Assembly: GCA_964603935.1 (NCBI GenBank)
Contig: CAZRWL010000003.1
Span: 1-61,807, forward strand
Reading direction: 5' to 3'
Source: an uncultured Gammaproteobacteria bacterium
Lineage (GTDB): Bacteria; Patescibacteriota; Microgenomatia; Levybacterales; UBA12049
DNA: 61,807 nucleotides
A program made the translations under genes and the position numbers. Positions 7,862-48,668 of this stretch are shown piece after piece. The notes under the pieces were generated by a model. It saw only the letters and a program-made list of their open reading frames with translations. It had not been told where the DNA came from and searched no databases. Position 1 is the stretch's first letter, and each line of letters starts with the position of its first letter.

Positions 7862-9286
7862 TCAAATTTTTTCAATTTCCACTCCCTTTTTCGTATCCTT
7901 AATATTATACCCTAATTTTTTTATCTTATTCCTAACATGGTCTGCCTGAGTATAGCTTCCCTGTTTTCTCAAATGATTGCGCTGTTCAATCAATATTTGC
8001 ACCTCATTTGGCACAACAACTTTTATAAGTTTTCTTTTCTCGCGCGCATTTTCAAAATCAAGCCCCAACACCTGATCCATTTTGAACAAACTTTCCGCTT
8101 TGGCAGAATCGGGATAATCGGATTTTATTAATTCCCAAACGATTGCAAGCGCTTTCGCCATATTCAAATCATCATTGACTGCTTCCAAAAATCTTCCTTC
8201 ATATTCCGCGCAGCCAATTTTGGGATTGCGCAATTTGGAAACTTCTTCAATTAACCTTTTGTATGCAATTTGCGCTCCCTCCAAAGCATCCCAGGTAAAA
8301 TTCATCTCCTGCCTGTAATGAGTTTGCAAGAATAAATAGCGCAAAGCCAGCGGATCAAACCCTTTTTTCACAACATCTTCCACGGTAAAAATGTTTCCAA
8401 TGCTTTTACTCATCTTATTGCCGTCAACGTGCAGAAAATTATGATGAATCCAATATTTTACAAATTCTTTTTCTGTGGCGGCTTCCGATTGAGCAATCTC
8501 GTTGGTATGGTGAATTGGAATATGGTCAATCCCGCCTGTATGAATATCCAGAGTTTCTGTTTCCAAACCTTTGATGGCCATTGTCGAACACTCGATATGC
8601 CAGCCCGGAAATCCAACTCCCCAAGGACTTGCCCATTCCATCTGACGACGCGAAGCGGAGTCATCCTGAGCGGAGTCGAAGGATCTCCCTTCTGGATAAC
8701 TAAATTTCCAAAGCGCAAAATCAGTAACATTTTTCTTACCCTTAACAAATTCTACTCGTGCTCCTTTTTTTAACTCTTCTGACCTCTGACCTGTCAGAAT
8801 TCCGTAATCCGGAAACTTGGAAGTATCAAAATAAATTCCGTCCGAAATTTTGTAAGTAAAGCCTTTTTTCTCCAGCGCCTCAATAAAAACAATCTGTTCT
8901 TTTATGTAATCTGTCGCGTGCATCAGAATATCCGGTCTTTGAATATTTAAAACATCTATCGAATTGAAAAATTGTTTTTCAAATTTTTTCGCGATATCCC
9001 AGACGCTCATACCGAATTTACGTGCACCCTTTTCCATTTTGTCTTCACCCGTGTCGGAATCCGATGTCAAATGCCCCACATCCGTAATATTCATGGCCTG
9101 CTTTACTCTGAAACCGTTAAATTCCAAAACGCGAATGAGAATGTCGTCGCCAACATATCGCCTCATGTGTCCAATATGCTGATAATCATAAACCGTGGGC
9201 CCGCAAGTGTACATATTTACAATAGGCGGCTTAACCGGTTTAAAATCTTCTATTTTTCTTGTTAAGATATTGTATAGCTTCAACAT
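7862..9286 (-). CDS. cysS: cysteine--tRNA ligase
   Basis: HIGH (HIGHMR) and KMSKS motifs, and typical CysRS length. It contains a GC-rich in-frame insert (SFDSAQDDSASRR). Confidence 0.95.
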   Translation of the reverse strand: MLKLYNILTRKIEDFKPVKPPIVNMYTCGPTVYDYQHIGHMRRYVGDDILIRVLEFNGFRVKQAMNITDVGHLTSDSDTGEDKMEKGARKFGMSVWDIAKKFEKQFFNSIDVLNIQRPDILMHATDYIKEQIVFIEALEKKGFTYKISDGIYFDTSKFPDYGILTGQRSEELKKGARVEFVKGKKNVTDFALWKFSYPEGRSFDSAQDDSASRRQMEWASPWGVGFPGWHIECSTMAIKGLETETLDIHTGGIDHIPIHHTNEIAQSEAATEKEFVKYWIHHNFLHVDGNKMSKSIGNIFTVEDVVKKGFDPLALRYLFLQTHYRQEMNFTWDALEGAQIAYKRLIEEVSKLRNPKIGCAEYEGRFLEAVNDDLNMAKALAIVWELIKSDYPDSAKAESLFKMDQVLGLDFENAREKRKLIKVVVPNEVQILIEQRNHLRKQGSYTQADHVRNKIKKLGYNIKDTKKGVEIEKI

Positions 9287-12714: not shown

Positions 12715-12784
12715 GTCATTCCGAACTTGTTTCGGAATCTCAATTTTAAAATACGAGATGCTGAAATAAATTCAGCATGACACC
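12715..12784. repeat. REP-A element (variant lacking the central hairpin)
   Basis: gtcattccgaacttgtttcggaatctc ... gagatgctgaaataaattcagcatgacacc. It has two terminal hairpins in inverted orientation. Confidence 0.75.
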
Positions 12785-14007: not shown

Positions 14008-14096
14008 GTCATGCTGAACTTGTTTCAGCATCTCCTTTGACTGCAAACAAGTCTGCCTGCTGGCAGGAGATCCTGAAATGAATTCAGGATGACACC
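14008..14096. repeat. REP-A element (complete tri-hairpin copy)
   Basis: Three hairpins: gtcatgctgaacttgtttcagcatctc, then ctgcctgctggcagg, then gagatcctgaaatgaattcaggatgacacc. Confidence 0.85.
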
Positions 14097-14102
14097 GATA
14101 GG

Positions 14103-15629
14103 TTACTTACTTTTCAAAACTACTTCTATTCTAACATTTTTCTTCGTAACATCTTTTATTGTTTTATTCAATATCTCCTGCGTTTTTGGCTCGCTTAATT
14201 TATCTTTATGAAATTTGAAATTGGTTTCTAAAATTAAACTTTTATTATCATAACTTTTTATTCTGCATCCGCGCAAGACCCCGGCTATAGAATGATTGTA
14301 AGCTTTTACTTTGTCTATCAGCGCGTTCCACAACGCATCATTCTCGCTGTATTTTGTCATGTCTTGTTGGGTAACGTTAAGCGGAACATCGGGCAAACGG
14401 GTGGCGGACAAAGGTGGACGGGTGGCAGAAGAGGAAGGGCTCCCGACAACGCGGACTGAGCTTGACGAAGGAGCATTGGCGGGAGGGAAACTTCTGACAG
14501 GACCCGATCCCACAACGGCCAAACCCCACTCGACGATTACTAACTCCAAAGGAATTTGCGGCAGAACTGCGTACTTTAATTCACCATACGCTTTTGACAA
14601 CAACTCTATTAGTTTTTTTACCTCCCCCATTTCCAAACTTGTCTGCGCTGCGAAACCCAAACGCTCTGACAAATTCTGAACTTCTGCTTTTAACAATAGG
14701 CTATTGTGCAAGGACTCAATAAGATTTTGCATAAAATGTCCAATGTCTATTCCTTCACCTACAAGCTTTGCAACTCCCTCCAAAGCGCTTTTTGTCTCTT
14801 TATTTTCAAAATTTCTTATCATTTGCGCTATTTGATATTCCATACTTGAGATTTTATGCTTGCTTTCAATCAAGTCTTTCGTAATCTTACCGTCTTTGGA
14901 AATTTGGGCCATCTCTTCCAAAATTTTTACCCCGTCCCTGAAACTTCCATCCGAAAGTCCGGCAATTAAGCTTAAAGCCTCTTTATCCGCAATTAAACCT
15001 TCTTTTTTTATTATTCTTTCGAATGACCTGACCAATTCTCCTCTTGTCGCTTTTTTGAATTGTATGCGCAAACAACGGGACAAAATCGTGTCGGGAACTT
15101 TGTGAGATTCAGTTGTGCAAAGAATAAAGACCACATGACTTGGAGGTTCTTCCAAAGTCTTAAGAAGCGCGTTAAATGCCTCCGTAGTTAACATGTGGAC
15201 TTCATCAATGATATAAACTTTTTTGCGCGCGCTTATCGGCGAAAGCTTTACTTTTTCACGCAGATCTCTTATCTCATCTATTCCCCTGTTAGAGGCTCCG
15301 TCTATTTCCAGAATATCCAAATTAGTTCCATTTGTAATGGACTTGCATTGATCGCACTTGTTGCACGGCTCCACATTAGCGTTAAGCGTTAAGGGTGAAG
15401 AGTGAAGGTTTTTTTTGTCTTTCCCCTTTCCGCTTTCCCCTTTCCCTTCACAATTAAGGGCCTTTGCGATAATCCGGGCAGTTGATGTTTTTCCCAGACC
15501 TTTGGGACCTGTGAAAAGAAAAGCATGCGAAATTTCGGAGCTCTCCAAAACACTATGGAGCTTATCTCTAACCTCTTTACTGTCTAATTCATCTATTGTC
15601 TGCGGACGGTATTTTCGATAAAAAACCAT
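14103..15629 (-). CDS. dnaX: DNA polymerase III subunit gamma/tau
   Basis: Walker A GPKGLGKTS, zinc module NC...EPCNKCDQC, and SRC motif SRCLRIQF. It carries REP-B and REP-D in-frame inserts. Confidence 0.95.
   Translation of the reverse strand: MVFYRKYRPQTIDELDSKEVRDKLHSVLESSEISHAFLFTGPKGLGKTSTARIIAKALNCEGKGESGKGKDKKNLHSSPLTLNANVEPCNKCDQCKSITNGTNLDILEIDGASNRGIDEIRDLREKVKLSPISARKKVYIIDEVHMLTTEAFNALLKTLEEPPSHVVFILCTTESHKVPDTILSRCLRIQFKKATRGELVRSFERIIKKEGLIADKEALSLIAGLSDGSFRDGVKILEEMAQISKDGKITKDLIESKHKISSMEYQIAQMIRNFENKETKSALEGVAKLVGEGIDIGHFMQNLIESLHNSLLLKAEVQNLSERLGFAAQTSLEMGEVKKLIELLSKAYGELKYAVLPQIPLELVIVEWGLAVVGSGPVRSFPPANAPSSSSVRVVGSPSSSATRPPLSATRLPDVPLNVTQQDMTKYSENDALWNALIDKVKAYNHSIAGVLRGCRIKSYDNKSLILETNFKFHKDKLSEPKTQEILNKTIKDVTKKNVRIEVVLKSK
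14420..14505. repeat. REP-B element (86-bp GC-rich), in-frame inside dnaX
   Basis: gggtggcagaagaggaagggctcccgacaacgcggactgagcttgacgaaggagcattggcgggagggaaacttctgacaggaccc aligns to 47968-48055 with only a handful of mismatches. Confidence 0.85.
15377..15450. repeat. REP-D element (LTLNA family), in-frame inside the dnaX zinc module
   Basis: tagcgttaagcgttaagggtgaagagtgaagg...ctttcccctttccgctttcccctttcccttcac. It encodes GKGESGKGKDKKNLHSSPLTLNA between NC and EPC. Confidence 0.6.
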
Positions 15630-15645
15630 ATCTTATTATTCCTTG

Positions 15646-15764
15646 TCATGCTGAACTGCGCCACCTCCGCTGAGGAAAGTCCTCTTGGAGGATTTCAGCA
15701 TCTTATTATAGTAAAGAAGCCTGCCTGTTGGCAGGAGATCCCGAAATAAATTCGGGATGACACC
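15646..15764. repeat. REP-A element with a nested ~38-nt insertion in the first hairpin loop
   Basis: Sequence reads gtcatgctgaa[ctgcgccacctccgctgaggaaagtcctcttggaggat]ttcagcatc ... ctgcctgttggcagg ... gagatcccgaaataaattcgggatgacacc. Confidence 0.8.
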
Positions 15765-16377: not shown

Positions 16378-16465
16378 GTCATGCCGAATTTATTTCGGCA
16401 TCTCCTAGATACTAAGCAAACCTGTCTACTGGCAGGAGATCCTGAAATAAATTCAGGATGACACC
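16378..16465. repeat. REP-A element (complete)
   Basis: gtcatgccgaatttatttcggcatctc ... ctgtctactggcagg ... gagatcctgaaataaattcaggatgacacc. Confidence 0.85.
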
Positions 16466-17552: not shown

Positions 17553-17882
17553 TTACATTTTCGCAGATTTTCCTAGGGGTCCTAAGAGGTGGAAATGCAA
17601 ATGATCAATTAACTGCGCTCCTCCGCCATTTATTGCAATCCTGTATCCTTTATCTTCCAGTCCGAATTTTCTAATCATTTCCTGAGTTATCTTTACTAAC
17701 TTCATCATTAATAATTTATTATTTATCATTAATAAATCTTCAACATGTTTTTTGGGAATAATAAGTAAATGTATTGGCTTTAAAGGATTAATGTCCGGAA
17801 AAACCATCACCCAATCATCTTCATAGGTAAATTCTTTTGGTATTATCCTGTCTCTAATTTTACAAAAAATACAATCAGCCAT
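17553..17882 (-). CDS. HIT family (histidine triad) protein
   Basis: CIFCKI and HLHFHLLG (HxHxHxx). The track start at 17918 lies within REP-C, so ATG 17882 (MADCIFCKI) is preferred. Confidence 0.85.
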   Translation of the reverse strand: MADCIFCKIRDRIIPKEFTYEDDWVMVFPDINPLKPIHLLIIPKKHVEDLLMINNKLLMMKLVKITQEMIRKFGLEDKGYRIAINGGGAQLIDHLHFHLLGPLGKSAKM

Positions 17883-18000
17883 AATACTGCCAATACTACC
17901 AATTTCAAATACTACCAATCAATCATCAAATATAGAATCCAAAATTCTGCGTTAAGTTTTTTTGCATTGATTTGCTTATTGGGTTATTTGTTTATTTGAT
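17883..18000. repeat. REP-C element (AT-rich imperfect palindrome)
   Basis: aatactgccaatactaccaatttcaaatactaccaatcaatcatcaaatatagaat ... tttgcattgatttgcttattgggttatttgtttatt. The left arm is near-identical to 39044-39100. Confidence 0.8.
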
Positions 18001-18002
18001 TA

Positions 18003-18956
18003 TTACACTTTCTTTAAAACTTCTATTATTTTTTCTAAAGAAAGTGTTGTTGGTCTCATTTTAGGATTTTTTACAGATCCGTTGAGAAGCATCTTTTTTG
18101 ACACATGTAAATACCAAGTGGCATCAGAATCCATCTTGCTAAGTCTTTCGCAAACTAAAGTTAAGTCAATATTTGTTTTCCCATCCGATGGAACCGCCTT
18201 TATCCTTACATATCCTTTTCTCGGGTCTTTTCTTAAAACAATTGCATACCCCATTTTTTGGGATAATTTGATAACAGAGTCGTTAATTGTCTCAAATCCG
18301 ATTCCCTTCCCAAAACGGGTTTCGAATTCATGTCCGTTTTGCGCAATTTCTTTCTCAGCCCAAAGCCTATTTTCAAATGTGTGCAAAACCGCATCCAGAG
18401 ATTTACTTACAAATTCAACGTAATAATCATCTTGATTTGGAAATTGAATTTTAAGTCCCTCTAAAATACCCGCCAGATCAAATTCATGATAGTCAGCCAA
18501 CGGATCTTTGCGAAAAACCTCCTTAAAATGATCTATATCCACAACCACCTTCACCATTCTGCCAACCGCTTCCATTCTGTCCTCCCACTTCCTGCTCTCG
18601 TTACCCTGAACCACGAACTCTGAACCACGAACTCGTTTGACAAAGTCAAACGTAAGGCTTGCGCCACAAACTTTATCCGAAGCTGTCTGATGATGATCCA
18701 AAGGCCCCAAACCAGTATCAACATGAATAACCTCATCTTCCCCAATCTTCTCAATAGCGTCTAGCGCCGAGCGTCTAGCGTTCAGTTCTTCGCTTGAACT
18801 AGACGCTGAGCGCTGATTAACTAGACGCTGGAGACGCTCTCCTGCAGGAACGAATTTAACCAAAGCATCGCTCCAGTCGGGCAAAAACTTTTTAATCAGC
18901 CAAACCGAAGTAATCGCATCCATGTCAGGAGAACTGTGTGTAACAACAATTTTCAT
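18003..18956 (-). CDS. DHH family phosphoesterase
   Basis: HSSPDMDAITS (DxD) and GPLDHHQ (DHH) motifs. The likely start is MKIVVTH at 18956. It contains a compound palindromic insert and a 14-bp tandem repeat. Confidence 0.75.
   Translation of the reverse strand: MKIVVTHSSPDMDAITSVWLIKKFLPDWSDALVKFVPAGERLQRLVNQRSASSSSEELNARRSALDAIEKIGEDEVIHVDTGLGPLDHHQTASDKVCGASLTFDFVKRVRGSEFVVQGNESRKWEDRMEAVGRMVKVVVDIDHFKEVFRKDPLADYHEFDLAGILEGLKIQFPNQDDYYVEFVSKSLDAVLHTFENRLWAEKEIAQNGHEFETRFGKGIGFETINDSVIKLSQKMGYAIVLRKDPRKGYVRIKAVPSDGKTNIDLTLVCERLSKMDSDATWYLHVSKKMLLNGSVKNPKMRPTTLSLEKIIEVLKKV
18757..18838. repeat. compound GC-rich palindrome inside the DHH gene
   Basis: agcgtctagcg occurs twice, then a loop, then ctagacgct occurs twice (nested inverted repeats). 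It is translated in-frame as QRSASSSSEELNARRSALD. Confidence 0.7.
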
Positions 18957-19024
18957 AATTTTAAGTATACAGTAGTAATCCCCACTTGACAAACTTATTG
19001 AAATAAAAGACTATAATAATGTAT

Positions 19025-23203: not shown

Positions 23204-23230
23204 GTCATGCTGAACTTATTTCAGCATCTC
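23204..23230. repeat. REP-A half element (first hairpin only)
   Basis: gtcatgctgaacttatttcagcatctc. Confidence 0.75.
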
Positions 23231-28573: not shown

Positions 28574-29370
28574 TGTCAACAGATCAACAAATCCCACCTC
28601 GAAGGTGGATTAGCTTGGCACCCTTTCTTTCTACACCTTGTCTTCCAAGGTTAGGTGCTTGATTTGTTCTAGCCGTCTTGCGTAATCAACCCTGTCCATA
28701 ACAAACTGTCTATATTTTTCTTTTGACGGAAACAAATCTAAAACAATTTCTTTATCTGCAATCTGGGTCTTTTGATTTCCCAAATATTCTGGATAAGACG
28801 ACCATTGATAATTTTCCAACTGTTCCGGCTCCACCAAAAATGATGACGTCGGATTCAAATGTATATATCTTGATACATGCATCAACTGCTCGTCCGATTC
28901 AACCCTAACTCCCTTAAACGCTCCTTGAAACAGGGGGCCAATCCGCTCATGTTTGGTATTAAAATATTTAGTATAGCTATTTGTAAAATTAGCTGCAAAA
29001 ATTGAGACGCCGTTTTTTATCATCTGCTTAACTAAAAAGTGAAAATGGTTAGGCATTAAACAATAAGAGATAATTTTAATTAGCTTCTGATTTTCGCCGT
29101 GAACTTTTTCAATCAGTTTGATTTTTTCAGGCTCGGAAAGAACTAAGAATTTAGATAGCTTAAAGGGTAAATTTGCAAATCTATAAAAATCAAGCGTTTT
29201 CACCCCCCTCTCAAATTCCCTTTTGCTTGTGAATGTAGGTCTTTTTTCAACCCCTCGATTAAAAATGTGGTAAATCTCATCGTTAGCAAAAACGAACTTT
29301 CTATTAGTAGCCATAACTATACCTTACAGTAAAAAAGAGGATGTGTCAAGCTAGACCACCTCGAAGGTGG
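28574..29370 (-). mobile_element. IS200/IS605-like or RAYT unit: Y1 transposase gene flanked by identical hairpins
   Basis: tgtcaa...ccacctcgaaggtggat occurs on both sides of the gene, with hairpins at 28594-28608 and 29356-29370. Confidence 0.7.
28631..29314 (-). CDS. IS200-like / REP-associated tyrosine (HUH Y1) transposase
   Basis: HUH motif YCLMPNHFHFLV and catalytic Tyr region SRYIHLNP. Confidence 0.8.
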   Translation of the reverse strand: MATNRKFVFANDEIYHIFNRGVEKRPTFTSKREFERGVKTLDFYRFANLPFKLSKFLVLSEPEKIKLIEKVHGENQKLIKIISYCLMPNHFHFLVKQMIKNGVSIFAANFTNSYTKYFNTKHERIGPLFQGAFKGVRVESDEQLMHVSRYIHLNPTSSFLVEPEQLENYQWSSYPEYLGNQKTQIADKEIVLDLFPSKEKYRQFVMDRVDYARRLEQIKHLTLEDKV

Positions 29371-29383
29371 ATGTTGTTTGCGT

Positions 29384-33773: not shown

Positions 33774-34280
33774 TTATCTTTCCAACTCCAAAAATTTATA
33801 TTTGTACTTCCCGTTATCATGCGCTTCTTCAAAAACCACTTTTTTAAAACCTGAATAATCCGGGAAAAAAGTATCAGCGTCAAATTCCCCCTCAACAATT
33901 GTCAGATATAATTTGTCTGTGGCACCAATTGTTTGTTGAAAAATTTTCTCTCCTCCAATAATAAAAACTTCCTCTTTTTCTTTTTGCCTAGCTATCTTAA
34001 GCGCCTCTTCGATCGAATACGCAGCAAAACCATATTTTGGATCAACAGAATAATTTTTGTTGTGAGTTACAACAATATGCGTTCTCATGGACATTGTGGG
34101 CTTTCCGCTTTTTTGATAATAGGAAAGCATTGATTCATATGTTGTTCTTCCCAAAATAACAGTATGCCCAACAGTTAAGTTCTTAAGTCGGACCAAATCC
34201 TCCTTGATATGCCATGGAATTTTGTTATCTTTTCCAATTCCCCTCTTCTTATCCATCACGGCAATTATTGAAACTTTCAT
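33774..34280 (-). CDS. folA: dihydrofolate reductase
   Basis: IIAVMDKKRGIGKDNKIPWHIKEDL and VILGRTTYES. There is a 4-nt overlap with thyA. Confidence 0.9.
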   Translation of the reverse strand: MKVSIIAVMDKKRGIGKDNKIPWHIKEDLVRLKNLTVGHTVILGRTTYESMLSYYQKSGKPTMSMRTHIVVTHNKNYSVDPKYGFAAYSIEEALKIARQKEKEEVFIIGGEKIFQQTIGATDKLYLTIVEGEFDADTFFPDYSGFKKVVFEEAHDNGKYKYKFLELER

Positions 34281-35272
34281 TTTTTCTTCCCCTCGTACAA
34301 TCCTCCCGCGACTGTTAATTCTCCCTTTATTGCCGGATGGGGGTTGTAATTTTCAAGAATTATTTTGTCCGGAGTAAAATCGGAAAGTTCTCCCATTTTG
34401 CCAATAATTTTTATTGTCGGGAAAGGACGGGGTTCCCTTTTGAGCTGTTCTTTGACCTGCTCGATATGATTTTCGTAAATATGCACATCGCCAAAAGTAT
34501 GGATAAATTCTCCGGGCTGTAAGCCCGCAATTTTAGCAAGAATTATTGTCAATAAAGCATACGATGCGATGTTAAACGGCACGCCCAAAAATAAATCCGC
34601 GCTTCTTTGATAAAGCTGCAAAGATAATTTTCCATTTCTATTGCTTATTTGATACATATTGTGGCAGATTGGAAATCTTGAAGCGTCTCTGTTAGTTGCC
34701 ATAGTGTAAAGATATTCCGGATTCCAGGAATTAACTATTAAATTTTTGGCATCCGGATCATCTTTCATCTCCTGCATCACCCATTTTAATTGATCAATCG
34801 TCCTTCCTTTTTTGCGGGCTTGCCCTGAGCTTGCCGAATGGGTGGGCCAGCTTCTCCACATTTCCCCATAAATTCTGGGCAAATTCCCCCAACGCTTTGC
34901 AAACTTATTATCAGTTGCAATTCTATTTATAAATTCTTCTTTGGACATTTGAGATTTGAGATTTGAGATTTGAGATTTAAATTTACCGCAGTAAATTTTA
35001 TATGGGTAATCATCCCAAATGTGCACATTATTGTCGACTAAATACTTAATGTTGGTCTGTCCTGAAAAAAACCAATAAAGTTCGTGCAAAACTCCTTTCC
35101 AATAAACTCGTTTTGTAGTCAAAAGCGGAAATCCTTTTGAAAGATCATATCTTGTCTGCCGTCCAAACAAACTATAAAGTTTGATATTTGTCCCGCGGTC
35201 AATCTTTTTAATCCCATGCTCCAACGCCTCTCTCACCAAATCCAAATACTGATATTCTCCGTGCTTATTCAT
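34277..35272 (-). CDS. thyA: thymidylate synthase (ThyA)
   Basis: Motifs YQYLDL, WRSWP, PICHNMYQ (catalytic Cys) and DVHIYENH. The track start at 35290 lies within a REP-A hairpin, so ATG 35272 is preferred. The gene carries two in-frame inserts. Confidence 0.93.
   Translation of the reverse strand: MNKHGEYQYLDLVREALEHGIKKIDRGTNIKLYSLFGRQTRYDLSKGFPLLTTKRVYWKGVLHELYWFFSGQTNIKYLVDNNVHIWDDYPYKIYCGKFKSQISNLKSQMSKEEFINRIATDNKFAKRWGNLPRIYGEMWRSWPTHSASSGQARKKGRTIDQLKWVMQEMKDDPDAKNLIVNSWNPEYLYTMATNRDASRFPICHNMYQISNRNGKLSLQLYQRSADLFLGVPFNIASYALLTIILAKIAGLQPGEFIHTFGDVHIYENHIEQVKEQLKREPRPFPTIKIIGKMGELSDFTPDKIILENYNPHPAIKGELTVAGGLYEGKKK
34951..34978. repeat. (gagattt)4 heptanucleotide tandem repeat inside thyA
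   Basis: gagatttgagatttgagatttgagattt, translated as KSQISNLKSQ. Confidence 0.85.
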
Positions 35273-35285
35273 ATCTTTCCCCTGT

Positions 35286-35312
35286 GTCATGCTGAACTCG
35301 TTTCAGCATCTC
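35286..35312. repeat. REP-A half element (first hairpin only)
   Basis: gtcatgctgaactcgtttcagcatctc. Confidence 0.75.
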
Positions 35313-38261: not shown

Positions 38262-38375
38262 AATAACCCAATACTACCAGTAAACAAATAGTCCAATCAA
38301 TAAACCAATTCCCAATTCTAAATTCTGTATTTTACATTGATTTGTTTATTGGGTTATTTGCCTATTTGTTTATTA
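38262..38375. repeat. REP-C element (divergent copy)
   Basis: aataacccaatactaccagtaaacaaatagtccaatcaataaaccaatt ... ttacattgatttgtttattgggttatttgcctatttgtttatta. The right arm supplies the last tmk codons (VINK stop). Confidence 0.7.
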
Positions 38376-39043: not shown

Positions 39044-39150
39044 TAATACTACCAATACTACCAATTTCAAATACTACCAATCAATCATCAAATATAGAAT
39101 TTTAAATTTTGCATTGATTTGCATATTGGGTTATTTGTTTATTGGGTTAT
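39044..39150. repeat. REP-C element
   Basis: taatactaccaatactaccaatttcaaatactaccaatcaatcatcaaatatagaat ... tttgcattgatttgcatattgggttatttgtttattgggttatttt. The right arm encodes the dcd C-terminus (NNPINK stop). Confidence 0.8.
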
Positions 39151-39715
39151 TTTCCTCGTGTATTCTGCTTTCGTTCGGGCCGTTTTGAATTTTGTATTTT
39201 GCTTGGGCTTTTTTCGCGTATGGAACTTCCGCGGCGCTTGTTAGTTCTTCAAAAGTCATGGCGCAAATTCTCATTCCCGGAGTTAATTTGACAGCCATTC
39301 TTCCCAAATTACCAAGCTCCAAAACGCATTTCCCGTCCCATCCCGGATCAAAAATTGAAGCTGTTGAATGGACAACTATTCCTAGCCTTCCCAAAGAACT
39401 TCTTCCTTCAAGCCTGCCCATCAGATCCGGGGCGATTTTTACTCTTTCCAAAGTTACAGCCAGCACGAAATCTCCGGGCTGCATCACAAAACTTTCTCCT
39501 TTTTTCACTTTTACTTCTTTGGTAATTTCGTTGGAATAATCTTTTTTTGCGGGATCAATGTAAGCGTTTCTGCTGTGGTCAAAAACCCGGAAAGTACTGC
39601 CAAGACGAAGATCAATGGAGCAAGAACCAAGCTGAGTTTTCAGATCGGGTTTGGGAGTGATAATAATTCTGTCTTGCAGAAAAGCTTTTTTAATATCCCC
39701 ATCCGCCAAAATCAT
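39131..39715 (-). CDS. dcd: dCTP deaminase
   Basis: GSCSIDLRLG and GRSSLGRLGIVVHSTASIFDPGWDGKCVLELGN, with the catalytic Glu retained. Confidence 0.9.
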   Translation of the reverse strand: MILADGDIKKAFLQDRIIITPKPDLKTQLGSCSIDLRLGSTFRVFDHSRNAYIDPAKKDYSNEITKEVKVKKGESFVMQPGDFVLAVTLERVKIAPDLMGRLEGRSSLGRLGIVVHSTASIFDPGWDGKCVLELGNLGRMAVKLTPGMRICAMTFEELTSAAEVPYAKKAQAKYKIQNGPNESRIHEENNPINK

Positions 39716-46800: not shown

Positions 46801-47153
46801 AACCTACACCAACACCCACCCCTATTCCCGTAAAAACAGTTAGCGTTTTAAATAAAGGAAGTTTTCCATTGTCAATTATAAATGTCTCTGATTCCAGCAT
46901 TAACTTCACATGGAGAGATATTGGCACAGCTTACAAATATACTGTTGAATATTTCTATGGAGCTGCCAATATAAAATATAGTGTAAATAATACTCTTTCT
47001 TTATCTCCTGTTACCGCTCCTCCCGTTAATAGGCAGTATAAAAGTACGGTTAATTTGAGCACAAAACAAAGTATGCATATGCGAATGAAAGCTTGCAGAG
47101 GAATAAACGCTAATTGTTCATTTTCGGATGAACTTTTTATCACTACTAAATAG
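43857..47153 (+). CDS. large secreted/anchored metzincin-like zinc metalloprotease with IPT/TIG and Pro/Thr linkers
   Basis: N-terminal signal anchor, HELGHSLGVLHA (HExxHxxGxxH), an IPT/TIG-like segment KISKIDPQTGNIGTEITIFGSGF, and TPTPTPKPTATPTLKPTPTPTP linkers. Confidence 0.7.
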   Translation: MFARIREKVIALRQKIALSNKKLIGLVIVLLTVIALPLIVIASQQEQDIRQHASEPTSSPNLTNQQEASSATTKDAEQIELLTNQLFQFNKKLTGDVGSLSEEDQTARNRATANLTEIAKKRKALLLQVIEEDPELFLSIALKQTMQSSMPAAIQEYLEKEVTVEGKTEVLHIDDFKNPANSRFNYFLKIGNEKINLFPTQELPIPSGVKVRIKGIQLDNNIVTTADSMSFQVLEAAPKPESVGDQKTLVLLIRFKDSGDPPFTKEKAHDLIFNGQFQKFYKEQSYNQVSFSGDVFGWFSLTYNNTHQACDVIYSKTISNVIDIPKLVADNNIELGIYSRLIFVVDTNYSGCSFVGTFETTINGKTYRFSEAAVGAHNYTNPWFNHPFEWTELDFTLSHELGHSLGVLHANGWDCKDQTLYGDCTHIEYGNYFDTMGIGSFSLHFNAFYKELLGWMNSSSTLLISTSGVYTLNPLELDSDKKFAKIQIQNSNVIPYDLEYRKGIGFDANLNNVTLLSNQSGLFINHIMTDPALPLNYSYTHLLDITPSSKFWADDIDDAALNGEKIFTDPGRGIAIGPIIKTDASSITFEVNLAIPSCVRQKPLASTVYISNPVVAGGFGTIDIKLTNADGFGCGESKFHITPTLPLGWKIIDIHPSDNIVIDADGKSSIYITFNPPENTPVGDYSLSYDIVNLQSGLKTHAELTTTIKPALKISKIDPQTGNIGTEITIFGSGFSEDASYNKISFSNPQGYAITNSKLFQLPTNEQVLKFTVPETICASGGLGAPGILGGGCSPKSTPSGTYGINVYNDFSGSNTMNFQVIEPPTPTPDLTPIPINWKTDSVSLQADNFFIKMDNRIFKPNSNFKLHSDSGKPTFTTSTLEATWLEGKTEMRLFIYFSIDANNQWKVTEMRTYDGKTPGNWLYYLGGESGKLGVPFANSNYSKQSKDGKGYVNFGKIKLEPFLNLVTPTPTPKPTATPTLKPTPTPTPIPVKTVSVLNKGSFPLSIINVSDSSINFTWRDIGTAYKYTVEYFYGAANIKYSVNNTLSLSPVTAPPVNRQYKSTVNLSTKQSMHMRMKACRGINANCSFSDELFITTK

Positions 47154-48668
47154 ATAGCTTCTTATCTCCCCAACCAAATATAAAGAACCCGTAACGACAA
47201 TAATTGCCCTATTGTTAAATTGCTTCATTGCTAAATTGCTCATAACTAATGCTTTCTCCAGGGCTTTTTGCGAGTCTTTTTCAACGGCAACCTTAACATC
47301 TTTCTTAATACTTAATACTTCATACTTAATACTTTCCGCGTCCGCGGAAGCGTGTAAGCTAACATCTGTTTTTGCGCTAAACTCCGTAACAATAATTTCA
47401 TCCGCTACTTTTACAATTTCCCTAAGCATTTTTTTAATATCTTTATCGAATTTAAAACCAATTATAAAAATCTTCTTTTTTTTTGGGAAGAGTTTTTTAA
47501 GACTTTTTAGAAACTCTTTCATTTTTACGGGATTATGCGCGCCGTCGAGAACAATTGTTGCCTTCTTGTCATGCTGAACTGGTTTCAGCATCTCATTCTT
47601 TCGTAAAGAGACCTGCCTGCGGGCAGGAGATCCCGAAACAAGTTCGGGATGACATTTTATAACCTCAAACCGCCCCGGGAAAAAGGCTGTTGACAAAGCT
47701 TTTCTAATATCTTTTTCCAAAACTTTCTTGTCCCTCGAAGCTTCAGCGAAGTGGGAAAACCCAAACTTTTTTAATTGCAATACTGCTTCAACTGCCAAAC
47801 TCGCATTCTCTTTCTGATAATCTCCCAACAAAGATAATTTGTAATTTTCAATAATTGACTCATCAAAATCTTTTCCAAGTCTGAATAATTTTGCTCCAAC
47901 CTTTTCACATCTATCTTCAATTATTTTAATTACCGAAGACTTCTTTACTCCCGATATGACAACTAAAGGGGTGGCAAAAGAGGAAGGGCTCCCGACAGCG
48001 CGGACTGAGCCTGTCGAAGGAGCACTGGCGGGAGGGATTACTTTTGACAGGACCCCGTGTAATTTTATAATCCCCGCTTTGGTTCTGGCGATTTTCTCAA
48101 TTGTTTTTCCCAAAATATCCGTGTGGTCCAAACCCACATTAGTCAGAACCGCAACCAAAGGATAAAGCGTGTTCGTCGCGTCAAACTCCCCTCCCATCCC
48201 CACTTCCGCAACCGCGATATCTACTTTCCGGTCTACAAAGTATTTAAACGCCATTGCTATTAAAATCTCAAAATACGACGGAGCTCCAACCGGCATCTTC
48301 CTCATTAGTTCAATAGTCTGAATCATTGAACTGACAATGTCCGTAAATTTTTCATCCGAAATTTGCTCCCCATTTATTTGCAATCTTTCATTTACTTTTT
48401 GCAGGTGCGGGGAGATTGTTAAACCAACCTTATAACCTGCGGTTTTCAAAATATGGGAAATTAGATATGCAGTTGAACCTTTCCCTGATGTTCCGCCAAC
48501 CAAAATTGATTTAAATTTTTCCTGCGGGTCCCCCAAAAGAGACAAAAAAATCCGCATTCTTTCCAGCGGATCATGATGTCTTAGGAATTGCGGATCGATT
48601 TTATAATAAATCTTTCCAATAAAACTTTCCAGATATTCCAGGGCTTGCTTATAATTATTAGTCTTCAT
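47118..48668 (-). CDS. folC: folylpolyglutamate synthase / dihydrofolate synthase
   Basis: Mur ligase P-loop GTSGKGST, with FPGRFEVI ... LDGAHNP. It contains complete REP-A and REP-B copies in-frame. Its last 14 codons lie antisense to the end of the metalloprotease gene. Confidence 0.9.
   Translation of the reverse strand: MKTNNYKQALEYLESFIGKIYYKIDPQFLRHHDPLERMRIFLSLLGDPQEKFKSILVGGTSGKGSTAYLISHILKTAGYKVGLTISPHLQKVNERLQINGEQISDEKFTDIVSSMIQTIELMRKMPVGAPSYFEILIAMAFKYFVDRKVDIAVAEVGMGGEFDATNTLYPLVAVLTNVGLDHTDILGKTIEKIARTKAGIIKLHGVLSKVIPPASAPSTGSVRAVGSPSSFATPLVVISGVKKSSVIKIIEDRCEKVGAKLFRLGKDFDESIIENYKLSLLGDYQKENASLAVEAVLQLKKFGFSHFAEASRDKKVLEKDIRKALSTAFFPGRFEVIKCHPELVSGSPARRQVSLRKNEMLKPVQHDKKATIVLDGAHNPVKMKEFLKSLKKLFPKKKKIFIIGFKFDKDIKKMLREIVKVADEIIVTEFSAKTDVSLHASADAESIKYEVLSIKKDVKVAVEKDSQKALEKALVMSNLAMKQFNNRAIIVVTGSLYLVGEIRSYLFSSDKKFIRK
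47161..47185. repeat. 25-nt exact direct repeat partner of 42992-43016
   Basis: cttatctccccaaccaaatataaag is present at both coordinates in the same orientation. Confidence 0.9.
47568..47654. repeat. REP-A element (complete), in-frame inside folC
   Basis: gtcatgctgaactggtttcagcatctc ... ctgcctgcgggcagg ... gagatcccgaaacaagttcgggatgaca. It is translated as CHPELVSGSPARRQVSLRKNEMLKPVQHD. Confidence 0.85.
47968..48055. repeat. REP-B element, in-frame inside folC
   Basis: ggggtggcaaaagaggaagggctcccgacagcgcggactgagcctgtcgaaggagcactggcgggagggattacttttgacaggaccc. It is translated as PPASAPSTGSVRAVGSPSSFAT. Confidence 0.85.

Follow-up and report, generated by a model that had tools for sequence, protein, structure and literature searches.

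What allows a palindromic repeat that otherwise lies between genes to sit inside folC and leave the gene open? The question is raised by contig CAZRWL010000003.1, a 61,807-nt stretch of DNA from a groundwater bacterium of the Candidate Phyla Radiation (CPR), analysed over its whole length and referred to below as the window. Its folC gene, encoding folylpolyglutamate/dihydrofolate synthase (47118..48668, minus strand), is an uninterrupted open reading frame (ORF) of 516 aa with three in-frame repeat inserts. One of these (47568..47654, minus strand) is a copy of the repeat REP-A: 87 nt, or 29 codons, read as CHPELVSGSPARRQVSLRKNEMLKPVQHD at FolC aa 340-368. We consider it probable that a non-autonomous palindromic repeat has here been inserted in frame, to be translated as a tolerated loop of 29 residues. 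An earlier note on this DNA had described a palindromic repeat, elsewhere found between genes, as lying complete and in frame in folC, and this description holds. Judged by its sequence features, REP-A is a CGTC-2-like head-to-head heterodimer with a structured spacer, belonging to the CGTC-tagged superfamily of repetitive extragenic palindromic sequences (REPs; Di Nocera, De Gregorio & Rocco, 2013, BMC Genomics 14:522; PMC3733652).

The codons of the folC copy run on the minus strand from TGT (47654-47652) to GAC (47570-47568). As single-stranded DNA, the segment folds into four hairpins: two 8-bp arms, a 6-bp central stem, and a 5-bp mini-stem. In gene orientation, the 5' arm with the CCCGAA stem (47627..47653; GAG-ATCCCGAA-ACAAG-TTCGGGAT-GAC) encodes CHPELVSGS; the central spacer hairpin CCTGCC-TGCG-GGCAGG (47612..47627) encodes SPARRQ; and the 3' arm with the GCTGAA stem (47568..47594; GTC-ATGCTGAA-CTGGT-TTCAGCAT-CTC) encodes EMLKPVQHD. 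The spacer also holds the mini-hairpin TCTTT-CGT-AAAGA (47597..47609; 5 bp), the register of which differs among copies. The folding energy is -23.2 kcal/mol (z = -5.4), and none of 200 shuffled sequences folded equally well. GC-rich, compact and strongly structured, the element lies within an AT-rich gene; its exact 86-mer occurs once in the window at up to three mismatches (0 expected by chance). The three hairpins of the 'tri-hairpin' element named in the earlier note are present, but the folC copy has four and represents a head-to-head REP dimer with a structured spacer. Two details of that description need correction. The third hairpin, given as CCTGAA, reads GATCCCGAA...TTCGGGATGAC in folC, with compensated changes on both sides of the stem, and the central stem ctgcc/ggcag has 6 bp, CCTGCC/GGCAGG, instead of 5. 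The frame used in folC encodes a peptide rich in Gly, Ser, Pro, Arg, and Lys, and the tryptic peptides expected from the translated insert are CHPELVSGSPAR and NEMLKPVQHDK.

The host gene appears intact. Pfam detected the domains Mur_ligase_M (PF08245) and Mur_ligase_C (PF02875) in the FolC ORF, which keeps the P-loop, the DGAHNP motif, and every family-invariant residue. The nearest solved relatives are FolC/FPGS enzymes, including that of T. maritima (1o5z; E = 2.5e-56). Alignment with 1o5z left clean gaps at FolC aa 203-236 and 340-371, each opposite 4 residues; those facing aa 340-371 lie between ...GRFEILEK and YILDGAHNP. The position of REP-A, hereafter site A (FPGRFE../..LDGAHNP), is therefore the one named earlier, between the motifs FPGRFEVI and LDGAHNP, which were said to be normally only a few residues apart: the distance is 4 residues in 1o5z and 4-12 in orthologues free of an insert.

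An AlphaFold2 model of FolC was built with an 87-sequence alignment and reached a mean predicted local distance difference test score (pLDDT) of 88.6 and a predicted template-modelling score of 0.88. Its target-normalised TM-scores against solved FolC/FPGS structures were 0.81-0.85. The pLDDT dropped below about 65 only in aa 201-235 (a second repeat, REP-B), 303-315 (a 30-nt insert), 340-369 (REP-A), and the C-terminal tail. Strands 335-339 (RFEVI) and 370-374 (ATIVL) flank the REP-A insert, the site of which is the turn between the first two beta-strands after the Mur-ligase central domain (RFEVI/IVLDGAHNP). As had been anticipated, the model thus places the insert in a low-confidence loop between two strands; it would be a disordered surface loop in the hairpin turn with which the C-terminal domain begins. 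The fold predicted for the insert-bearing FolC suggests that the enzyme is probably functional. The folate/thymidylate partner genes thyA, glyA, and dcd are intact in the window.

Copies of REP-A in the window and in other genomes

Full or partial relatives of the folC copy were found at six further places in the window, the full copies being diverged from it. Three intergenic dimers correspond to the copies listed earlier at 14008, 15646 (15645 in our analysis), and 16378: one between dnaX and ybaB (14008..14093); one of 117 nt between ybeY and dnaX (15645..15761), the GCTGAA arm of which has about 30 nt nested in its loop; and one with an imperfect central hairpin (16378..16462). Another intergenic dimer of the same hairpin type, with TCCGAA and GCTGAA stems and without the central hairpin, is located between prs and recR (12715..12781). 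Single REP hairpins lie directly upstream of a minus-strand gene start (23204..23230) and directly upstream of thyA (35286..35312). Except for that in folC, every window copy is intergenic and occupies a short spacer of a minus-strand operon. All are co-directional with the flanking genes; orientation bias as a sign of single-stranded DNA transposition was rejected, since the wider sample described below is mixed (14 co-directional versus about 8 anti-directional copies).

Small secondary palindromes are nested precisely in REP-A hairpin loops in the window (15658-15692) and at other loci (L001, 2544-2629; folC site A of L003; L164, 3199-3305). They occur both between and inside genes, and inside genes always as multiples of three.

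A metagenome scan for the junction of arm and central hairpin (TTCRGGATCTCCTGCC-N4-GGCAG) yielded 52 loci, corresponding to 40 non-redundant copies. A census by location and frame, which the earlier note had outlined, showed REP-A to be mostly intergenic (31 of 40 copies), usually beginning 5-17 nt past the upstream stop and ending 4-15 nt ahead of the next start. Eight copies are intragenic on the forward strand, and their hosts are folC (at site A and at a second position, site B) and the genes for a GT4-type glycosyltransferase, a FemAB-like protein, and arginyl-tRNA synthetase (ArgRS). The one remaining copy (L171) lies within a small and doubtful opposite-strand ORF on a 1.9-kb contig. 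All eight forward-strand intragenic copies share one orientation and one frame, measure 86 or 86+21 nt, and are free of stops. Among the 31 intergenic copies, stops in that frame were present in 12 and a frame-breaking length in 10, with either or both in 14. The frame used in genes is open in 28 of 43 distinct copies and the other frames in 0-11. The use of a single frame is thus largely, though not wholly, accounted for by the stop codons that close the others. Frame exclusivity is accordingly weakened as proof of peptide-level selection, the frame used being the one that is most often stop-free.

The ArgRS gene of L178 contains two in-frame elements: a full REP-A dimer and a dimer without the central hairpin (CHAEFISASQISGNKILKQVQDDK). 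A purine-rich tract resembling a Shine-Dalgarno sequence follows REP-A on its 3' side; it may be part of the element or may stem from the usual location of the repeat upstream of genes.

The retrieval pattern preset the central stem and half of one arm, leaving the other arm and column 9 unconstrained. In an alignment of 28 copies, the three main stems were 99% paired. The 8-bp arm stems (ATSCYGAA/TTCRGSAT) were paired at 100% and 99%, with compensatory Y/R changes. Two stem positions covaried: U-A in 19 and C-G in 9 copies, none unpaired; and U-A in 24 and C-G in 3, with one unpaired. These values of pairing and covariation were attained by no shuffled or slid control.

Re-use of FolC loops by different repeats

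Eighty FolC homologues were aligned with MAFFT. The source names given to homologues place the organism among Candidatus Levybacteria and other Microgenomates (Patescibacteria), so that the proposal of in-frame selfish-DNA behaviour like that of Rickettsia palindromic elements (RPEs), in a different lineage, is upheld. The length of the proteins ranges from 433 to 576 aa, with the differences confined to a few blocks. At site A, P0034 (FPGRFEVV-NSQLILDGAHNP), P0050, and P0008 are free of an insert; together with the clean gap in 1o5z, they bear out the clean insertion for which an orthologue alignment had been proposed. The REP-A peptide (CHPEFISGS...NEMLKQVQHDK) occupies this site in about 10 orthologues with 56-64% protein identity. 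REP-B (GPV..PS..GSPSSFATP) is found there instead in four orthologues, including the closer relative P0002, and the remaining ones include proteins with yet other low-complexity inserts. At site B (GIIK/..VVTGV), REP-B is present in the window FolC, P0008, and P0012, and REP-A in P0003 and P0020. REP-A thus lies at site A in some species and at site B in others, with the converse for REP-B. These occurrences show that REP-A entered several unrelated genes, as well as two FolC loops, independently.

Two of the three inserts in the window FolC had gone unmentioned earlier. The REP-B copy (47967..48056, minus strand; about 90 nt) encodes GVLSKVIPPASAPSTGSVRAVGSPSSFATP at FolC aa about 205-234 and forms an imperfect long palindrome with the ends GGGGTCCTGTCAAAAG and CTTTTGCCACCCC. 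The third insert, of 30 nt (47727..47756, minus strand; site C), encodes SHFAEASRDK at aa 305-314. It is missing from most orthologues, common to P0015 and P0016, and located elsewhere in the FolC of P0055. Folding gave weak z-scores for both as structured elements (-0.9 and -2.5 for REP-B; +0.4 for site C). Four other orthologues carry the peptide ACLPAGR near the SHFAEASRDK site, which reads like the REP-A central hairpin CTGCC-N4-GGCAG.

Another REP-B copy, 91% identical to that in folC, is read through in dnaX (14417..14505, minus strand). This repeat is GC-rich, and further copies occur in eight REP-A-bearing metagenome loci, in the folC gene of L004, and at folC site A of L180. The frame in which its 5' half is translated is one of two, depending on the host, which is what a DNA element, and not a protein module, would be expected to show. 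Compared with E. coli tau, dnaX also contains an additional in-frame insert of about 16 aa (GKGESGKGKDKKNLHSSPLTL; window 15395-15470, aa 63-85). It is made of GGGAAAG/CTTTCCC-type repeats, and a similar peptide is present at FolC site B of P0011.

Orthologous folC DNA was obtained from public assemblies (L001-L007 and L180), in which REP-A could be seen as DNA, beyond the peptide level. Compensated stem changes distinguish the folC copies (CCCGAA/TTCGGG versus CCTGAA/TTCAGG; GCTGAA/TTCAGC versus GCCGAA/TTCGGC). For the central stem, most copies have CTGCC/GGCAG, whereas P0005 has CCCC/GGGG, and in P0004 and at site A of P0003 extra small palindromes are nested in the hairpin loops. The middle of REP-A has been lost in multiples of three in P0010, P0006, and P0019. 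Apparent deletion remnants of REP-B, consisting of the ends only, occur in P0016 (GIIKTG-ATPLVV) and in P0022 and P0027 (GRFEV.GGP..ATPLIVLDG). Codon-aligned identity to the window folC, inserts excluded, was 68-71% (47-50% at third positions). REP-A at site A shares 77-83% DNA identity with the window copy. The REP-B copies at site B of the window and L004 are 94.9% identical over 99 nt, versus 70.5% for the rest of folC (50% at third positions).

The inserts are responsible for the spread in FolC length among close relatives. They make the proteins look more diverged than they are, create false 'lineage-specific' segments, and can misdirect the clustering, alignment, and structure prediction of CPR proteins. 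Through the re-occupation of the same loops by different repeats, nature has mapped where essential enzymes tolerate insertions.

Proposed mechanism and alternative explanations

The REP-A unit consists of two CGTC/TGTC-tagged hairpins of the CGTC-2 type, with the tags outside, around a conserved spacer forming one or two small hairpins. It is dispersed in a Levybacteria-like genome and its relatives, chiefly in short intergenic spacers. One copy lies in the folC turn, where the ORF is kept; its orientation and frame are those free of stops in the largest number of copies. On the proposed reading, the insert would be translated as a disordered surface loop of 29 residues without loss of enzyme function. 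Selection would remove copies that fall in another frame, in another orientation or within a structured protein segment; this would leave few permissive loops, such as FolC sites A and B, to be re-occupied by different families across species. The inserts would then decay through in-frame internal deletions.

Several points weigh against this explanation. That the inserts are so much better conserved at the DNA level than folC could result from selection on the DNA or RNA itself or from gene conversion, and a view of the repeats as purely neutral passengers has no explanation for inserts that are conserved above their host gene. The use of one frame only partly exceeds what stop codons predict: at about 0.5 per event and five independent sites, p is about 0.03-0.06. 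Comparison by eye of the sequences flanking REP-A and REP-B revealed no target-site duplication or target motif. Finally, the 3-nt tail of REP-A is an invariant CTC, as opposed to the CCA consensus reported for CGTC-tagged REPs.

The alternative that survives best, although we consider it unlikely, is that the element has been exapted: mRNA hairpins or the peptide loop would serve the host and be kept by selection, beyond mere tolerance, for example in ribosome pausing before the C-terminal domain, as an RNase processing or stability site, or in a protein-protein contact. The excess of DNA conservation in the inserts (77-83% for REP-A and 95% for REP-B versus 69-71% for folC) agrees with such a role, as do the compensatory changes that preserve the stems and the location of site A directly ahead of the first strand pair of the C-terminal domain. 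The tight fit of intergenic copies between co-transcribed genes is also compatible with the RNA role that the text of PMC3733652 proposes for REPs. However, many close orthologues have no insert at site A or carry an unrelated repeat there, and deletion remnants are present in P0010, P0006, and P0022/P0027, the last two retaining only the GP..ATP ends. This patchy presence, the replacement of one repeat by another, and the remnants speak for tolerance rather than need. Moreover, the peptide is modelled as disordered, and recent independent insertion from conserved master copies would explain the DNA identity equally well.

Ribosome-skipped inserts are represented by the 'byp' GC-clusters of Magnusiomyces mitochondria and by T4 gene 60. 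As a compact, GC-rich and structured insert in an AT-rich gene, REP-A superficially resembles byp elements, and the protein might lack the segment that its gene carries, with ribosomal skipping or mRNA removal joining FEVIK to ATIVLDGAHNPVK. We regard this as very improbable. The frame and the stop-free state, which neither bypass nor splicing would require, are kept in 8 of 8 intragenic copies and broken in 14 of 31 intergenic ones. Deletions and nested insertions within genes are multiples of three, no intron or ribozyme was matched in Rfam, and self-splicing introns are far longer than 87 nt.

Still less credit can be given to the idea that folC is a decaying pseudogene and REP-A one of several disruptions. 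Three inserts in one gene and the reduced nature of CPR genomes might be cited in its favour, but the 516-aa ORF is unbroken and retains its P-loop, DGAHNP, and family-invariant residues; the fold is modelled with confidence outside the inserts; insert-bearing orthologues are intact in many species; and the partner genes thyA, glyA, and dcd are intact as well. That the segment is an ordinary, vertically inherited FolC loop, with intergenic look-alikes that are unrelated or derived, is scarcely credible: a similar peptide does occupy the same site in about 10 orthologues at 56-64% protein identity, but the same DNA occurs in intergenic spacers and unrelated genes, REP-A lies at a second FolC site in other species, closer relatives have other repeats at site A (REP-B in P0002), and the hairpin unit is spread over many bacterial phyla.

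The Y1 gene, further repeats, and known systems

The window contains a gene of the Y1 HuH 'IS200-like' transposase family (28631..29314, minus strand; PF01797, E = 1.9e-7), located between tsf and an ORF of no assigned function plus frr. Its motifs NHFH and YIHLNP are the signature of subclass 2.1 (PMC6006769). The gene is bracketed by the hairpin ATCCACCTTCGAGGTGG at 28594-28610 and 29356-29372, plus an inner inverted 14-mer. Many homologues were found (60-87% identity; 221-239 aa, mostly 223-227); those with a source name are from Levybacteria, Daviesbacteria or Microgenomates. Their genomic contexts differ, and the gene is always accompanied by its own covarying flanking hairpin and the inner inverted 14-mer. 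A regular-expression search for the HuH and Y motifs over all fetched loci (about 1.3 Mb) retrieved only the Y1 gene of the window. A link to REP-A received no support from the flanks of this gene, which carry a different hairpin and no REP-A, and no GTCAT-type hairpin was present in a 20-kb Daviesbacteria locus with a Y1 gene. As a mobiliser of REP-A, the Y1 gene is thus a hypothetical candidate. Ongoing copying is suggested by the 95% identity of REP-B at the same FolC site, folC being otherwise 70% identical. We see a small chance that copying of the repeats continues in these CPR genomes, with particular protein loops attracting them or keeping them uniform, and that the RAYT-like Y1 HuH enzyme is the mobiliser of CGTC-tagged REPs, for which no dedicated transposase is reported in the literature.

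Other genes of the window also carry repeat-like segments. The gene for cysteinyl-tRNA synthetase (CysRS; 7862..9286, minus strand) has a CGTC-like single hairpin at 8660-8687, with the ends GTCATCCT...AGGATCTC, which is read as RSFDSAQDD; the Pfam match covers 324 residues for 298 profile positions. A DHH-family ORF (18003..18992, minus strand) includes an in-frame, palindromic GC-rich stretch at 18764-18852 with AGCGTCTAG / CTAGACGCT repeats (z = -3.6), at which its Pfam match shows a large gap. Inserts therefore appear to be dense, with FolC, DnaX, CysRS, and the DHH-family protein affected in one 62-kb window. In thyA (34277..35290, minus strand), about 49 residues exceed the span of the Pfam profile, and a GC-rich island at 34798-34869 encodes ...THSASSGQARKKGRT; folding revealed no clear hairpin in this island (z = +0.9). 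A 77-nt direct repeat, unrelated to REP-A and REP-B, occurs at 17882-18004 and 39044-39151 with 90% identity, and also at 38321-38374. It is followed by TTGGGTTATTTG-type short repeats and lies upstream of several minus-strand genes. In the related contig L003 (1078-3933), the folate gene cluster is preceded upstream by three consecutive LAGLIDADG homing-endonuclease ORFs, which may be located in rRNA introns.

Searches of Rfam at gathering and permissive thresholds gave no family for REP-A or REP-B, only chance-level miRNA and snoRNA matches. Literature searches with sequence and peptide strings returned unrelated primer matches only, and for Patescibacteria, Microgenomates or Levybacteria nothing relevant was found on REPs or on repeats read in frame.

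Among known systems, the ERIC, Correia, Coxiella QMITE1, and Anabaena MITE elements (PMC10969869) are likewise small non-autonomous repeats that can fuse an internal ORF to host genes. They are bounded by terminal inverted repeats of the classical type and by target-site duplications, linked to insertion sequence families, whereas neither such a duplication nor a parent insertion sequence was found for REP-A. The REPIN/RAYT system (Bertels & Rainey, 2011; PMC6006769) is similar in that an inverted REP pair with a short spacer is the replicating unit and singlets are remnant-like. As in that system, a conserved Y1 HuH gene occurs, with a single one in the window. However, REPINs are GTAG-tagged and flank their own RAYT, while REP-A is tagged with TGTC and the Y1 gene is flanked by ATCCACCTTCGAGGTGG.

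The closest resemblance is to the CGTC-tagged REPs. The text of PMC3733652 describes these as hairpins with an unpaired 5' CGTC tag, often TGTC and with CCTC as another accepted variant, an 8-9-bp stem starting with A-T, a 4-5-nt loop, and a 3-nt tail. They form mainly head-to-head dimers, the conserved 20-100-bp spacers of which can hold a small stem-loop; heterodimers are known in CGTC-2 and CGTC-3, and family CGTC-2 has an 8-bp stem and a 5-nt loop. The same text locates them near ORF ends, mostly in intergenic regions and with no dedicated transposase, some dimers being in frame and encoding 20-30 aa. REP-A agrees with most of this. TGTC precedes both arm stems in all window copies. Of the 28 aligned copies, 27 have T in the first column and L157 has A, while G2, T3, and C4 never vary; one further copy outside this alignment starts with CGTC. 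The stems have 8 bp with A-T and T-A as the first two pairs, and the loops have 5 nt (CTTGT, TTTAT, CTGGT, and others), the exceptions being nested insertions. The tags are outside, and the spacer of about 35 nt has a 6-bp stem-loop beside the CCYGAA arm. The copies are in the majority intergenic, near ORF ends, with an in-frame minority. An intragenic CGTC-2 peptide of Sulfurovum, RHSELVSGS, given in a supplementary table of PMC3733652, is nearly identical to CHPELVSGS of the present copy. As to a transposase, the window does contain the candidate Y1_Tnp gene, which is not flanked by REP-A hairpins. The CTC tail is the sole deviation noted in the element itself. REP-A further differs from the described members in its Patescibacteria/CPR host, the apparently dense coding inserts, and the re-use of loops by different repeat families.

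The bare hairpin GTCATSCYGAA-N5-TTCRGSATCTC was found at at least 120 loci when one genome per species was searched. About one would be expected by chance, as calculated for a 27-nt hairpin with 18 fixed and 4 two-fold positions on both strands of 596 Gb. The matches listed include Bacteroidota, Spirochaetota, Alphaproteobacteria, Nitrospirota, Elusimicrobiota, Ignavibacteria, many Patescibacteria, and others; a frequent arrangement is the inverted pair of a GCTGAA arm and a CCYGAA arm, again with nested inserts. The same few loops, CTTGT, TTTAT, and CTTGA, recur in these hairpins from different phyla (L008-L127). The presence of an exact 27-nt hairpin across many phyla raises the question of its conservation or spread.

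RPEs (Ogata et al., 2000, Science 290:347, as summarised in PMC10969869 and PMC3733652) resemble REP-A in their non-destructive in-frame insertion into unrelated housekeeping genes. The claim that REP-A is a different element stands only in part. According to the text of PMC3733652, RPE-6 represents CGTC-1 and RPE-4 represents CGTC-4, which places both in the same superfamily as REP-A; that text names five host phyla, Patescibacteria not being among them. The geometry of the families is different: an 8-bp stem with a 4-nt loop in RPE-6, a 9-bp stem with a 5-nt loop in RPE-4, and 8 bp with 5 nt in REP-A. By the descriptions in these two sources, RPE-1 is about 150 bp long and unrelated in sequence. 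RPEs reside in an obligate intracellular alphaproteobacterium, REP-A in a groundwater CPR bacterium. The kind of element is therefore already known, as a described superfamily that includes some RPEs, and the host lineage is new. New, too, are the three inserts in one essential enzyme, FolC, the occupation of the same two loops by different repeat families in different species, and a DNA conservation of the inserts above that of the host gene; the candidate Y1 enzyme is a further point of interest. In-frame insertion of REPs, described chiefly in Rickettsia and in a small number of other bacteria, is thereby extended to the CPR.

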